Positions 1 through 19,495 of a stretch of DNA of 20,000 nucleotides are shown here, piece after piece. The notes under the pieces were generated by a model. The model was given only the letters and a program-made list of their open reading frames with translations. It had not been told where the DNA came from and did no database searches. The first letter of the stretch is position 1. Every line of letters starts with the position of its first letter. The position numbers and the translations under genes were made by a program. This DNA is from Craspedostauros australis (taxonomy: Eukaryota): positions 47,618-67,617 of the forward strand of contig JALAGF010004049.1 in NCBI GenBank assembly GCA_030167865.1. Reading direction: 5' to 3'.

Positions 1-2938
1 GGAAGCAACGCAAAGGCAAAGCACAGTGCTCCACGTATCTTTGGCATGGAGAAATGGATAGAGTAGCGCAGAGCAGAGGAGCTTGTGTCTCCACCCGTTT
101 CTCCACTCCATCCCACTCCACTCTCGCTTCTACTCTCATTTTTCATGGTACTGGTGCTCTTGCAAACACTGCAGCTGGAGCGGACGCAGCTTGGAGATTG
201 ATCATAGCATAACAGCACTCACCCGCAAACCTGTCGAGGAGAGTCCTCGGCGACACTTTCCATTTCCCCAGGAGCCGACTGGCCTCCACGAGCACAGCAA
301 CAGCTGCCCTGCCGTGTGCTGCACTTCCATTTGCTCCACTCTTCTCGTATCCGTACCGTACCCTACCGCACTCCACCAACATGATGATCGCATCCTCGTG
401 TCTGTTGTTGTCCGTGATTCCATTGCGAGAGGCAAGGGGAGGAGAAGCGAGACCAAGCGTCATGGGAGAAGATCATAGATCGTCATGGCCTGCGTGAACG
501 TCATTGGCCCGCTTTTGCAGGGGATGGCGAATGATGCGCGCAGGGCGTCCTCATGGTCGATCGGGTGGTTCGTCATTTGACTGGAAACCGAGGCGAGATG
601 TCAATGGATCGCGCTGACATTTGACGAAGTTGTTGACGACTCCAGAGGAACGTTCTCCCGGTACCATTTCGTTCTGCATCCGCAAACGCCGCGATGGTGT
701 TTGTGAGGTTTAGCCCGACTAACCACCGAAGATGATTTCGACCACAGATCAACGAAGATGCTTGGCCCAGATAGTAGTACCATCGCCATACACGCACACT
801 CTGCGGACATGCACCGCGCATCTTGGAACACAGTTCGAGACACGTTGCCATCATGTGACAGTGACCCACGACCTCTTCGCCGACTGGCACCTGCGGGTAT
901 CCCTCGCAAATAGCCACAGAGGCAGGTCTGTCACATCGCAAGACAGATCTGTCCCAGTATCCTCCCTCTCTCCTTCTCTCCATCTCTGTCTTTGAATTGG
1001 CACATCTGGCAATGAGAATACAACCAATTGCACCGATTGGTTCTGCTGCAATTGAAACGGGAAGACTTGCGGTACCATTTGAACCACTTCATTTATTCAT
1101 CACCTTCGCACGTAGAATATGATACGTCGTTGCAACGGTGCGATACGATCACGAGTGTACGTATTATCACTTGTTACTTGTCATTATTATAATAGTTGTT
1201 AGTTGTCATCCCGCAAAGCGTACGCCATATAATACAACCCGTACTATTGCATGACTCGTTGTGCCGCCTCCTCGAGCACTTCCAGAGTTGCTGGGAATGG
1301 CCATCATCATTGGTCTGAGCTGGCATGTGAGTGTGGGTCTCAATGTGTGCGAAAGCCGCACGCGCAACTTCGGAAGACGATATCGCAATGCCCCTCCTGT
1401 GTGTAACGGCGTGGCGCGCCATCATGGTGACTGTTTGGTGAAGTGCTCTGATACTCCTCCCTATTGGTTCTCGGCGCCATTGTCCTTCCTTGCCACCACT
1501 CGTTGCCATGAACATCGCGCGAGTACGCACACAACTGGAGTGACATCGACATCTTCCTTCGAACTGGAAATGTGATGGCAGTGTGTGGATGGTACGAGCA
1601 TGAGTATGTATTGTACGAATACCATGCACTGCGGGTCCTCATCCAGCAGACGTCTGGGTCTACCCTGCTCTGCTTGTGCTATTGTCCATCAATGACAAAC
1701 CATAGTCCGAAGGAAAGAGAGAAGTTCTCACCTTCTGTCATACCTCGGACCAGGGCGAAACATCGGATACGCTTTACCGCCAAAACATCCCTTGTGCCAA
1801 ACACCTCGGAGCACAAGCACTCGTACGTCTGGTACGAGGAGACGGAGGACTTATCATGCCCACGATTGATGGGACGCAAGCCAAACACACGAAATTCAGG
1901 TGGACGTGCAAGAGGAGGAATTCCCATTGTGGGATCTTGTGAACGGCGGTGGACAAGGCGGGAAGGAGGCAGGGATCGGGCTTGTGTTTTGAGAGGATGT
2001 GACAGCTGGATGGGGCCATACGTATAGTAGTGTGATGCGAGCATGGCAAAATGCTGTCAAAAGATCATTGCACGATCAGCCACGAACTTCTCGTTTCACA
2101 GGTTCGGAGGTGGAAGTGCCGACCATCGCAGTATGCTCGGAGGATCACAAGTACAAACAGAAGCACAAATGGACGCAGGAATAGGAGTTGGAGGATATTC
2201 GTTGAGCAGTAGCGCTCTGGCCCTCCTGCTCTTCCAACACGAGTGCGCAGCTCCGCTCCTTCAGAGAAAGGAGCTTGGTGAACTGAACCCCAGGCCAACT
2301 CGCTGCTTGGCCAGCCAATCGATTGCACTTCCAACTTGGTCGGATTGACACGGCTCCTCAGTGAAACATACTGGTAGCGCGGTATGACGGCACAGCTGAT
2401 GTCGCTGCCGGAAAGGATGAGACTCGCCGCGACGATACCTTGCGAACAACACGCGTGATGAAGCGAAATTCTCATCGCCCAGCATCAAGCTCGGAATGTC
2501 CTCATGCTTCATCTTGTGATCTGTTTTCTGCGCCGTGGCTTGTACGCAGAGCGAGTGTGCCGAAAAGCCCTCTCGGCTGATGATGATTCAATCGTTGTGG
2601 GCACGTATTGATTCGCCGGACAACTCAAACGCACCAAAGTGACGCAGGAGGCGAACACATCAACAATAACGAAACTGCAATTGGGACCACATTTATGGCT
2701 CCAACCTTGTTGACCAACCATCTGTTCCCCTTGCGAACGACCGCATCATCACACTTGTGATAGGAGTTGGAGGCGGGGGGAGAAACGTGCAAAGTCCACC
2801 TGTTACCGAACACGACAGACTATTTGCATTTATGGTACATGTCAACCAAAGAACAATGCGAATCAGTGGCCTGTCGCAGTAGAACCCACCACAAGCAGGT
2901 CTGGATGCGATCATGGTTTGTCTAACATCTCGCCGACA

Positions 2939-17402: not shown

Positions 17403-19172
17403 ATGCCGGGACCACGCATCACAGCGCAGCAACTGGAGCAGCACCAGCGACATCGGTTGCTGAGGCAGATCATGAAGGGTGATAGCAGCGGCAGTGGTGC
17501 CAAGGATGGCGCCAACGACAGTGTCAAGACCAGCAAGAACAAGAACAAGGGGAGCAGCAGCAGCAAGAACAAGAACAATGGAACCAGCAGCAAGGGAACC
17601 AGCAAGGGAACTAGCAAGGGGAGAGAGAAGAGGGTGGGCCTGGGAGCATGGCTGAAGAAGAACAACATGTCGGGAAGCATGAACATTGGCATCAGCATGA
17701 TGAGCAAGGGAAGTCGCAGCGACCACACCAGCGGCTACACGAAGGGAGGCGGTAACAGCAAGGGCAGTATTGGCAACAGCAGCAGGTACGGCTCTGCTTC
17801 CACGAGAGACAGCTGCAACAAGTCCGTCTCTTCGAGCAGAACAGCCAAGACGGTCGCATCCACGGAGGAATCCAGCTTCTCAGTTTCGGAACTCGCAGGA
17901 CCCTCGACGGCGCCATCCACTCCTTCGGCGCTCTCCACCCTGTCCACCCATTCATTGCCACCTCTGTCTGCCTCCAAGAATGTCACCCCAGGCAGCAGCA
18001 GCAAGCGACGCACGAACAACCACAACCACAATGACACCCACAATGAGAACATCAACGTGAGCGTGAGCGTGAGTCTGCATGACGCTGTGAATGTTGATGT
18101 GAGCTCCAATGTGAATGGTAGCAACAGCAACAACAACCAAAGAAGAAGGCACAAGAACGTTCGCTTCCATTCCGATCGCAACCTGGTGTCCGTGCGGCGC
18201 ATCGCCGGCCTCGACTCCTACAGCAACGACGAATGGGGCGCCTGCTTCTACTCGCGGCCTGAGTTCGACGCCATCACCCAGAAGGCCCACAAGGTCATCG
18301 CCAAGTACACCAAGCAGTTCCACAAGGCCAAGCAGACGGACGGCCGCCGCAGGAGCAACGAATCGGGCGACGACGGCATCCCCACCACGGACCCCTCCTC
18401 CCTCTTCAACTACACCAGCAGCAACAAGAAGCTCTGCATCCGCGGCCTAGAGAAGTTCTTCACGCAGCGACAGAACGAGGTGGACGACATCCGCATCAAG
18501 GCCATCGACATCGTCATGGACATCCAGGACGAGCAGTGGCAGTGGGGCCATGACGATGGCAACGAGCAGATCGCCAAGCAGTACCATCAATGCACCAAGC
18601 ACTGCTTGCTGCAGGCGCAGGAGCGGGCGAATCATGATGCCCGGGCCATCCAGAAGTACATCAAGAGGAGCAGGAGTCGCAGCATGGACAGGATCCAACA
18701 TCAGGATCCAGCCAACGATGCGCCTGCCAAACCGCTGCATCTCTTCATGGAACAGCAGACCTCCTCCCTGGTTCCCACCGATGATGATGAGGACACCATC
18801 GTCACGGCGGAGTCGGACCTCCTGGACACCGTCCCCTTGCACAGACCCCTCGCAGACGTGCGCGATCCCACGCGACGCCGGCGACCCCAGCTGCCACAGC
18901 AGGCCAAGCTCATCGCGATGCAGCGACGCCTCTCGGAAGAGATCGAACGCTTCGATCCCAACCTCCTGCTTGCAACGAAGGATGACTGCGCACGCGACGC
19001 GGCTCCACGTGCCCGCCGCAATGCGGTCGTCGTGCTCACCAAGAGCGAGATGAAGCGATCCATGGCGCCGGGGCAGGTCAAGATCACCAAGGATGTCAGA
19101 CGCAATCTGTCGCAGCAGATCGTGCAGTTCGATGCCAAGAAGTTGAAGCAGATGGTGCGATCCAATCAGTGA
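17403..19172 (+). CDS. Hypothetical protein of the diatom 'VxF...Y/W-S..E...C.RGLE...VL..Q...IA..Y' family, 589 aa, with an RVxF-type motif and C-terminal beta-thymosin/WH2-like repeats
   Basis: Long ORF. The track start at 17103 is TTG; the first ATG is at 17403 (AGAACCATG), after an AT-rich stretch. Core 18153-18650: KNVRF...VSVRRI..LDSYSNDEWGACFYSRPEFDAI...LCIRGLEKF...AIDIVMDIQDEQ...EQIAKQYHQCTKHCLLQAQERANHDA. I recognise this pattern from recalled diatom hypothetical proteins, not from a search. Confidence 0.88.
   Translation: MPGPRITAQQLEQHQRHRLLRQIMKGDSSGSGAKDGANDSVKTSKNKNKGSSSSKNKNNGTSSKGTSKGTSKGREKRVGLGAWLKKNNMSGSMNIGISMMSKGSRSDHTSGYTKGGGNSKGSIGNSSRYGSASTRDSCNKSVSSSRTAKTVASTEESSFSVSELAGPSTAPSTPSALSTLSTHSLPPLSASKNVTPGSSSKRRTNNHNHNDTHNENINVSVSVSLHDAVNVDVSSNVNGSNSNNNQRRRHKNVRFHSDRNLVSVRRIAGLDSYSNDEWGACFYSRPEFDAITQKAHKVIAKYTKQFHKAKQTDGRRRSNESGDDGIPTTDPSSLFNYTSSNKKLCIRGLEKFFTQRQNEVDDIRIKAIDIVMDIQDEQWQWGHDDGNEQIAKQYHQCTKHCLLQAQERANHDARAIQKYIKRSRSRSMDRIQHQDPANDAPAKPLHLFMEQQTSSLVPTDDDEDTIVTAESDLLDTVPLHRPLADVRDPTRRRRPQLPQQAKLIAMQRRLSEEIERFDPNLLLATKDDCARDAAPRARRNAVVVLTKSEMKRSMAPGQVKITKDVRRNLSQQIVQFDAKKLKQMVRSNQ
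17531..17620 (+). repeat. Coding tandem duplications (SKNKN x2; SKGT/SKG x3)
   Basis: cagcaagaacaagaacaa occurs twice, followed by agcaagggaacc agcaagggaact agcaaggg. Confidence 0.85.
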
Positions 19173-19440: not shown

Positions 19441-19495
19441 TGTCTCAGGAGACAAACTTTTTGACCTTTGTGCGAGGACCTTGTCTCCTGAGACA
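19441..19495. repeat. Perfect 15-bp inverted repeat whose arms each contain a TGTCTC-NN-GAGACA palindrome
   Basis: TGTCTCAGGAGACAA (19441-19455) and TTGTCTCCTGAGACA (19481-19495), with a 25-nt spacer. Confidence 0.9.

Follow-up and report, generated by a model that had tools for sequence, protein, structure and literature searches.

The gene at the centre of this analysis codes for a protein of an unnamed family that appears to be confined to diatoms and whose conserved unit is, on the strength of motif conservation and a predicted complex, a PP1-binding module, a reading to which we assign a probability of roughly 0.6. PP1 takes its specificity from partner proteins, and to our knowledge almost nothing is known of such partners in diatoms. 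The sequence comparisons and modelling, all of them computational, suggest that the family is probably a new, lineage-specific set of RVxF-type PP1 regulators. The gene lies in the window, the whole 20,000-nucleotide stretch of Craspedostauros australis DNA that was analysed, and had been put forward as a regulator that joins PP1 docking to actin sensing through two beta-thymosin/WH2-like repeats. The PP1 part of that proposal gained support, while its beta-thymosin/WH2 part did not.

Gene layout and family membership

KNVRF, CIRGLE and two tail repeats were all located on one intron-free open reading frame of 589 aa (17403–19172, forward strand), each where the original prediction had placed it (Table 1). 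The protein begins with MPGPRI, which resembles the MPGLRI that opens the transcript-derived orthologue P0002. The first 245 residues, of which 54 are serine, 27 asparagine, 25 glycine and 21 lysine, are little conserved, except for the patches LGAWLKKN and CNKSVSS-RTAKT that are common to P0002. No second RGLE gene was found in the window, and regular expressions returned neither a SILK nor a MyPhoNE motif in the protein. Two sets of weak protein-level matches were set aside. The Pfam hits were inconsistent, with EF-hand_like at E = 0.01–0.18, under its cut-off, and DUF5333 in 3 of 42 members; the whole protein gave a single match among PDB sequences, to an unrelated DUF386 protein at E = 0.71.

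Table 1. Features of the RGLE gene in the window, with nucleotide positions counted from the first letter of the window
Feature	Residues	Positions	Strand	Basis
Coding sequence P0001, complete, single exon	589 aa plus stop	17403..19172	+	start agrees with P0002
N-terminal Ser/Asn/Gly/Lys-rich low-complexity region	1–245	17403..18137	+	composition
Basic run QRRRH, then RVxF-type KNVRF	246–255	18138..18167	+	family conservation; predicted F255–PP1 291 contact
LVSV, candidate phi-phi strand	261–264	18183..18194	+	family V-x-V; predicted PP1 293–297 pairing
EWGACFY, candidate Trp-motif equivalent	277–283	18231..18251	+	F282 at family W position
Helix 1 of the domain	285–316	18255..18350	+	AF2 model helix 40–71
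Linker, variable length, low confidence	317–344	18351..18434	+	block pLDDT 52–61; indels in relatives
C-x-R-G-L-E signature (CIRGLE)	345–350	18435..18452	+	alignment conservation; predicted G348–PP1 128
Helices 2 and 3 of the RGLE domain	354–381 and 386–432	18462..18698	+	AF2 helices 109–136 and 141–187
Tail repeat 1; core RRLSEEIERFDPNLL, aa 508–522 (18924–18968)	493–522	18879..18968	+	local self-alignment; partly kept in P0002
Tail repeat 2; core RNLSQQIVQFDAKKLKQM, aa 567–584 (19101–19154)	551–584	19053..19154	+	local self-alignment; missing from P0002

A HMMER search of 1.84 billion representative sequences returned 59 relatives at E ≤ 1e-3; the matches fell chiefly on the RGLE helices, and many of them also reached the upstream V-x-F/W-Y stretch. 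Significant similarity across the V-x-F/W-Y/C-x-R-G-L-E/helical unit places the window protein in this diatom RGLE family, for which public data contain at least 59 clusters (50% identity). A further search with the family profile scored 8000 candidates and returned 16 proteins, a figure that is no measure of family size. The 30 nearest clusters in the protein atlas are all unnamed, and the top three are mostly Bacillariophyta, in line with a diatom origin. We found no account of the RGLE family in the literature on diatoms, RVxF motifs or PP1 regulatory subunits.

Seven positions are invariant in a 42-sequence alignment of the diatom family (alignment A1), namely F255, R347, G348, E350, V371, A405 and D412, and the window protein has all of them. 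Within the C-x-R-G-L-E signature, R, G and E are present in 42/42 sequences, C in 95% and L in 98%. The helices that flank the signature are mostly modelled with confidence by AF2: helix 1 has block pLDDT values of about 89–94 for model residues 41–60 and 78 for 61–70, and helices 2 and 3, which carry the invariant V371, A405 and D412 together with a near-invariant Q375, have values of 75–94. A Foldseek search of the domain model against the PDB gave nothing at E ≤ 0.001 (best E = 4.7), and VIA-align against 48,161 chains recovered only generic helical hairpins and bundles, among which no PP1 regulator stood out; its best match (Z 7.6, rmsd 6.8 over 96 residues) falls under the tool's level for helical models. 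The lack of a good match in these searches does not imply a new fold.

A family-wide RVxF-type string precedes the RGLE domain

The RVxF docking motif follows the pattern [RK]-x(0,1)-[VI]-{P}-[FW] and sits in an accessible, non-globular stretch. A loose RVxF expression was present in 34% of 5000 shuffles of the protein, so its occurrence alone means little; a stricter one was present in 4.6%. KNVRF occupies aa 251–255 (18153–18167), and comparison with the orthologue and the family alignment confirmed that it heads the conserved domain. The motif phenylalanine is invariant (42/42), V or I stands two positions before it in 41/42 sequences of alignment A1, and basic residues occur at F-4 in 25/42 and at F-5 in 22/42. 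Thirteen further members were taken from outside the alignment, 12 of them compared as far as the motif region; 10 of the 13 carry [RK]-S-I-x-F upstream while 2 have I replacing F. The V-x-V positions behind the motif are kept in 26/42 and 32/42 members, and the position downstream of them is W in 36/42 and F in 6/42. The window protein departs from the family consensus in having F at this last position (F282), three extra residues between the motif F and V-x-V, and a KNVRF that lacks the serine found inside the consensus motif. These departures weigh against the PP1 reading, as does the I of the two members outside the alignment.

The conserved V-x-F, W-Y and RGLE elements might instead form a self-contained folded domain that is unrelated to PP1, for instance a helical module that binds protein or nucleic acid, in which V-x-F would have a structural role as a strand and the PP1 model would be an artefact of motif-likeness. 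We consider this unlikely, although two features of the family speak for it: the 42 sequences keep V-x-F at a nearly constant distance from the helices, as would fit a strand of a fold, and the whole unit is duplicated in P0031. Against it, the AF2 monomer gives no confident packing for the V-x-F stretch, which is coil with no secondary structure and a block pLDDT of 58–70 beside helices at about 90. A low-confidence coil next to confident helices has the look typical of a partner-binding string.

A predicted complex with PP1 buries the conserved surface

The complex was predicted for aa 246–446 and a PP1 catalytic subunit encoded at a metagenome locus (L064), which matches PP1-gamma at E = 1.7e-180 and served as a stand-in for the diatom's own. 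It reached an ipSAE of 0.92 in each of three runs, which shared at least 82% of their contacts with a partner pLDDT of at least 72, and the best of three controls, like both kinds of control, scored 0.00. In a calibration from which peptides, disordered chains and predicted chains were excluded, 51 of 78 solved complexes attained the 0.92 mark, compared with 2 of 108 mismatched pairs (39 of 65 and 2 of 126, respectively, for eukaryotes).

In the predicted complex F255 contacts PP1 residue 291, aa 261–262 contact residue 293, aa 265 and 267 contact residues 296–297, and G348 lies against residue 128. Both aa 277–283 and PP1 132–135 fall within the predicted interface, and the specific Trp-motif pair is not among the listed contacts; the Trp motif of RVxF-type regulators contacts PP1 I133/Y134. 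Thirteen PP1 residues are named for Phactr1 in excerpts of PMC7599070, as contacts of its Arg motif, Trp motif, groove helix and alpha7-alpha8, and 12 of these fall in our predicted interface. In the model the RGLE helices cover the PP1 hydrophobic groove, and the RGLE domain itself, which had no place in the original prediction's account of docking, is part of the predicted interface.

The ten most conserved family positions are all among the 67 of 201 residues that form this interface (hypergeometric p = 1e-5), as are 21 of the top 25, and the same proportion is found when the comparison is limited to the 139 structured positions (p = 7e-7). The complex predictor made no use of the family alignments, although a language-model predictor that senses conservation may produce such an overlap. 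A predictor may also place RVxF-like strings because it has memorised the many solved complexes that contain them, a caveat that speaks for the domain unrelated to PP1. Three observations argue against that domain: the lowest-error contacts come not from the RVxF string but from helix 3, where A405 and its neighbours meet PP1 193–196; both kinds of control scored 0.00; and the ten most conserved positions all face PP1. A family-wide motif and a predicted complex whose controls score zero support KNVRF as a PP1 docking site, and give this part of the proposal better backing than when it was first argued.

The modelling used one canonical PP1, and the module might bind another PPP-family phosphatase or a diverged PP1 paralogue in its place. 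Metagenome ORFs that resemble PP1 and have long N-terminal extensions and altered motifs (L007, L056) indicate that eukaryote PP1 paralogues of differing form exist. Nevertheless, canonical PP1 scored 0.92 while the best control stayed at 0.00, and the RVxF pocket is a hallmark of PP1, which leaves this alternative extremely improbable in our estimation.

Two weak, independent pointers to PP1 were noted along the way. The sole match of the family profile to a PDB sequence at E ≤ 10 was CASC5/KNL1 (6czo chain B, in what we take to be a PP1 complex), aligned without gaps over RRVSFADTIKVF (RRVSF-ADT-IKVF) at E = 0.26, which is not significant; KNL1 lacks the RGLE domain. The nearest atlas cluster that bears a Pfam family carries PF10488 (PP1c_bdg) in 16% of its members, at a score of 0.87 that lies below the tool's 0.9 line and makes this a lead only. 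PF10488 itself had no match at E ≤ 10 in the window protein or its domain, and none at E ≤ 1 in the 42 relatives, among the 25 most-matched of 35 families.

No support for the tail repeats as actin-binding modules

The internal repeat reported for the tail exists, although it is weak. Aligned locally, the tail halves score at best 44 over about 31 residues (aa 493–522 against 551–581), a score reached by 0.15% of 2000 shuffles; when repeat 2 is set against all other parts of the protein the corresponding value is 2.2% of 1000 shuffles. Each repeat holds an R-x-L-S site. A single-sequence fold of low confidence (mean pLDDT 57.5) makes repeat 1 helical and repeat 2 one long helix.

In the beta-thymosin/WH2 consensus, a basic LKKT/LKKV-like motif comes after an amphipathic helix. 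Under the proposal as first made, KNVRF would dock PP1 while the two repeats sense G-actin, giving an independently assembled subunit of the Phactr or PPP1R15 kind. The supported PP1 part counts in its favour, as do the helical predictions for both repeats, low in confidence as they are, and the use of G-actin by PPP1R15 and Phactr (excerpts of PMC4394352 and PMC7599070). Repeat 2 also recalls the thymosin motif in its short predicted helix and F-D-x-K-K-L-K, with LKQM after the helix, and its I-x-x-F-D-x-K-K-L-K shares 6 of 13 positions with a thymosin beta-4 string taken from the original prediction. Profile, PDB and orthologue checks, however, all went against it. The whole protein, the 95-aa tail and 26- and 30-aa pieces that hold the single repeats gave no Pfam match to Thymosin (PF01290) or WH2 (PF02205) at E ≤ 10, and RPEL (PF02755) likewise had none at that threshold, in searches whose HMMER filters may conceal matches weaker than E of about 0.1. 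Among 177,635 PDB sequences the tail matched no thymosin or WH2 chain at E ≤ 10, and among 5.8 billion proteins it matched nothing at E ≤ 1; two weak PDB matches were both to unrelated proteins.

The motif is also not conserved. Of the 61 family proteins stored, that of the window alone contains the pattern L-S-x-x-I-x-x-F-D. In the single orthologue available, P0002, repeat 1 has 27/45 identities and I in place of F (LSEEIQQID), and the protein stops before repeat 2. Repeat 1 of the window protein has no LKKT-like part, in agreement with the earlier remark that it lacks the basic LK. We therefore judge the combined PP1–actin subunit very unlikely; its actin half is unsupported, and at present there is no support for the suggested connection with actin, gliding and valve formation.

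Discussion

The PP1-binding module that we favour has the same order of elements as spinophilin/neurabin, PNUTS, PPP1R15A/B and Phactr1, in which basic residues are followed by [VI]-x-F, a hydrophobic strand, W/F and a groove helix. We detect no sequence or profile homology between these RVxF-phiphi-R-W regulators and the window protein, and the absence of a significant tie to known PP1 regulators also counts towards a domain unrelated to PP1. The three-helix domain that follows the string, with its invariant C-x-R-G-L-E loop, is found in the RGLE family and in none of these regulators. The PPP1R15/GADD34/viral DP71L-ICP34.5 group (PF10488) is docked through RVxF with V-x-V directly after the motif, as is seen in the PPP1R15A sequence; in contrast to that group, the RGLE family shows no link to eIF2-alpha, and the PF10488 model matches the window protein nowhere. 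The distance from the motif F to the W position is 24 in the RGLE family consensus and 27 in the window protein, compared with 19–20 in PPP1R15B and Phactr1 (excerpts of PMC4394352 and PMC7599070). PPP1R15 recruits G-actin through a short amphipathic helix (excerpts of PMC4394352), and Phactr couples PP1 docking to G-actin sensing through RPEL motifs and has a groove-covering helix analogous to the predicted placement of the RGLE helices (excerpts of PMC7599070). RPEL repeats are absent from the window protein by Pfam, and we found no sign of actin binding.

In the mechanism that we propose, the conserved unit would act in two parts, an extended string that runs from basic residues through [VI]-x-F and V-x-V to W/F-[YF], and a three-helix domain opened by the invariant C-x-R-G-L-E loop. 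V253 and F255 would enter the RVxF pocket, which lies on PP1's back face, LVSV would add a strand beside PP1 beta-14, and the chain would then pass over the C-terminal groove, bringing the RGLE helices to rest on the hydrophobic groove for substrates and on the catalytic cleft's rim. Helices in that position would restrict or re-specify the range of PP1 substrates, and the protein would be an inhibitor or a specificity subunit. The conservation of the motif and the predicted complex are what the analysis shows; real binding is inferred from them, as is an effect that would either inhibit PP1 or re-target it. Lineage-specific roles in targeting or regulation would fall to the S/N-rich N-terminus and to the tail with its two weak helical repeats.

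A bolder version of this reading, for which the odds seem to us slightly short of even, is that RGLE proteins form a diatom-specific, expanded class of PP1 regulatory subunits with an undescribed PP1-binding domain, in which an RVxF-phiphi-W string is joined to the three-helix module; they would be the diatoms' own large PP1 targeting toolkit. The invariant R-G-x-E loop at the cleft rim might then serve as a pseudosubstrate-like gate or as part of a composite substrate surface, and in the window copy a thymosin-like tail helix might add G-actin control, converging on Phactr and PPP1R15.

If the PP1 reading is true, an unannotated family that lacks a Pfam entry would gain a testable biochemical role, and PP1 substrate grooves would be covered in a structurally new way. 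For diatom biologists, the family would then offer a direct handle on phosphatase signalling.

The gene and its neighbourhood

An uninterrupted ORF contains the whole candidate, and its translation confirmed that KNVRF, RGLE and the two tail repeats occur in one protein, with every motif lying where the original prediction had placed it. The N-terminal 245 residues are Ser/Asn/Gly/Lys-rich, and only two patches there are common to P0002, the sole close orthologue. In an AF2 monomer model built with the family alignment (mean pLDDT 80, pTM 0.56), aa 246-265, which carry the RVxF and V-x-V strings, are coil (block pLDDT 58-70), the linker ahead of C-x-R-G-L-E has low pLDDT, and three long helices (aa 285-316, 354-381 and 386-432) reach a pLDDT of ~90.

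HSF factors are expanded in diatoms, and the HSF-type ORF of the window fits that expansion. The inverted repeat downstream of the gene may form a 3′-UTR hairpin.

Features of the 589-aa protein and of the surrounding window
Feature	aa	Nucleotides	Strand	Remarks
Candidate ORF	589 aa	17403-19172	+	uninterrupted
LGAWLKKN	80-87	17640-17663		shared with P0002
CNKSVSS-RTAKT	139-151	17817-17855		shared with P0002
KNVRF	251-255		+	translated ORF
CIRGLE	345-350		+	translated ORF
Repeat 1	508-522		+	translated ORF
Repeat 2	567-584		+	translated ORF
ORF	653 aa	5169-7130	+	two helicase-associated (HA, PF03457) stretches, E = 1.3e-34
Long ORF	484 aa	7954-9408	-	no Pfam family at E ≤ 0.01
Long ORF	519 aa	9617-11176	-	no Pfam family at E ≤ 0.01
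ORF	667 aa	13493-15496	+	HSF-type DNA-binding domain, PF00447, E = 1.9e-18
Inverted repeat		19441-19455 / 19481-19495		perfect, 15 nt, 25-nt loop, ~270 nt 3′ of the stop codon

An RVxF-like string is shared across the RGLE family

KNVRF alone means little, because a loose RVxF pattern arises in 34% of shuffles of the protein; a stricter pattern arises in 4.6%. Its relatives, apparently diatom proteins, join a V-x-F string to a helical domain opened by C-x-R-G-L-E. HMMER, run exhaustively over 1.84 billion representatives, returned 59 proteins at E ≤ 1e-3, none named beyond ‘hypothetical protein’. Except for P0002, the matches were confined to the domain, within query residues ~2-258 and for the most part over the RGLE helices at ~95-200, and left the tail unmatched. 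P0002 (528 aa, derived from a transcript) is identical at 120 of 200 residues over the domain (60%) and carries KTVQF in place of KNVRF. The nearest protein-atlas clusters are mostly from Bacillariophyta, and the family is not covered by any Pfam model.

The family alignment holds 42 sequences, 41 of them RGLE-containing proteins picked from the 59 hits, most shorter than 400 aa; the remaining hits were mostly long or without an exact RGLE. Its invariant columns are F255, R347, G348, E350, V371, A405 and D412. Counting from F (42/42), a basic residue occupies F-5 in 22/42 sequences and F-4 in 25/42, S occupies F-3 in 20/42, and F-2 is V/I in 41/42; on the C-terminal side come V at F+4 in 26/42, V/I at F+6 in 32/42 and [RK] at F+7 in 25/42, and a further aromatic position holds W (36/42) or F (6/42), followed by Y or F. 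KNVRF is thus the window's form of a family-wide [RK]-x-[VI]-x-F ... V-x-V ... W-Y. Among 13 later-found members, none used for the alignment, 10 carry [RK]-S-I-x-F and two (P0064 and P0065) have I replacing F; the portion of P0069 that was covered stops short of the motif position. The strict pattern occurs 40-115 residues upstream of RG[LMIV]E in 40 of 68 collected proteins, 19 of which 68 offered a slice of fewer than 60 residues.

Family architecture varies. P0031 carries the whole unit in two tandem copies, one with KSVHF...RGLE and one with RSVDF...RGLE, so that string and helical domain duplicate as a single block. Many longer members (P0046, P0055, P0064 and P0068) have N-terminal Y-G-Y-G-D-A-(A/S)-P-D repeats and a conserved R-R-A-S-I-G...E-V-x-L-P-G immediately before the RVxF-like motif; both features are missing from the window's protein.

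A predicted complex places the RGLE module on PP1

A short degenerate motif, scanned across metagenome contigs, recovered complete PP1 ORFs, and one of 330 aa (locus L064; PP1-gamma match, E = 1.7e-180; PP1-alpha numbering common over residues 2-311) served as a stand-in partner. Some PP1-like ORFs (L007 and L056) have long N-terminal extensions and H-E-S-A-G-I-N replacing H-E-C-A-S-I-N, and apparently represent a diverged subtype of PP1.

PP1 residues 1-300 were modelled with aa 246-446 without family alignments. The complex scored an ipSAE of 0.92 in three of three runs, against 0.00 for the best of three controls; in calibration 51/78 solved complexes and 2/108 mismatched pairs attained this mark (39/65 and 2/126 for eukaryotes). 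Contact agreement among runs was at least 82% and partner pLDDT at least 72. The model supports PP1 binding by the RGLE module, although the pass may partly be memory of likeness, since many RVxF-string complexes are already solved.

In the model, F255 contacts PP1 291, L261 and V262 contact 293, and R265 and I267 contact 296-297, the predicted route of the RVxF and phi-phi strand along beta-14. The interface continues over PP1 23-27, 70-71 and 270-271, then 128-129, 132-135, 150-151 and 189-202. The lowest-error pairs join A405 and its helix-3 neighbours to PP1 193-196, and G348 of RGLE to PP1 128; RVxF pairs are not among them. Through contacts with PP1 96-99, 222-223 and 270-275, the modelled RGLE loop reaches the edge of the catalytic cleft; R96, R221 and Y272 line the active site.

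Conservation tracks this interface, which takes in 67 of the 201 construct residues. All 10 of the most conserved alignment positions fall inside it (p = 1e-5), as do 21 of the top 25, and restricting the count to the 139 structured positions again gave 21/25 (p = 7e-7). Interface columns carry 2.27 bits of information on average, columns elsewhere 0.98. Two weak pointers agree with the PP1 reading: the only PDB sequence match of the family profile at E ≤ 10 is the CASC5/KNL1 chain 6czo_B, over RRVSFADTIKVF (weak, E = 0.26), and the nearest Pfam-bearing atlas cluster (score 0.87) has PP1c_bdg on 16% of its members, a weak lead only.

The tail repeats give little reason to expect actin binding

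The internal tail repeat is real but weak: the tail halves align over ~31 residues with a score of 44, matched by 0.15% of 2000 shuffles, and when repeat 2 was compared with the remainder of the protein the figure was 2.2% of 1000 shuffles. Both repeats were predicted helical, at low confidence, in a single-sequence fold. The original prediction had read them as beta-thymosin/WH2-like, G-actin-binding segments. Pfam returned no Thymosin, WH2 or RPEL match at E ≤ 10, whether the query was the full-length protein, its last 95 aa or either repeat alone; at the same cut-off no thymosin or WH2 chain came up among PDB sequences, and 5.8 billion proteins gave no relative of the tail at E ≤ 1. Among 61 collected family proteins, L-S-x-x-I-x-x-F-D is kept only in the window's own. 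In P0002, repeat 1 is retained as RRLSEEIQQIDPKILL, where I replaces F, and the protein ends 24 residues later, therefore without repeat 2. Repeat 2 does resemble the quoted thymosin string, a likeness that stays a resemblance because the single orthologue does not have this repeat. With no profile match and the motif not kept, the actin-sensing part of the original prediction is unsupported and very improbable; the PP1-docking part is supported by the family-wide motif and the predicted complex.

Both repeats contain R-(R)-x-L-S (RRLS and RNLS), and R-[RH]-x-S occurs within the last 10 residues of 11 of 61 family proteins, mostly as the C-terminal ending (e.g. RRLSM, RRMSM or RRLSV), which looks like a conserved basophilic phosphosite. 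The shared element may thus be a basophilic kinase site.

Relation to known PP1 regulators

The RGLE module looks functionally like the RVxF-phiphi-R-W class (spinophilin, PNUTS, PPP1R15 and Phactr1); by sequence and profile it lies outside each of these families, and no relative of its three-helix C-x-R-G-L-E domain was identified. Thirteen PP1 residues are named for the Arg motif, Trp motif, groove helix and alpha7-alpha8 loop contacts of Phactr1 in PMC7599070, and all of these except W149 (12/13) fall in the predicted interface. Among known partners of PP1, PPP1R15 (PMC4394352) and Phactr (PMC7599070) are the ones that make use of G-actin as well. The literature searched held no description of the RGLE family or of diatom RVxF proteins. 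We consider PP1 docking likely, with a probability of roughly 0.6, and a property of the whole family, and on this computational support the RGLE proteins are candidate, lineage-specific PP1 regulators of the known RVxF kind.
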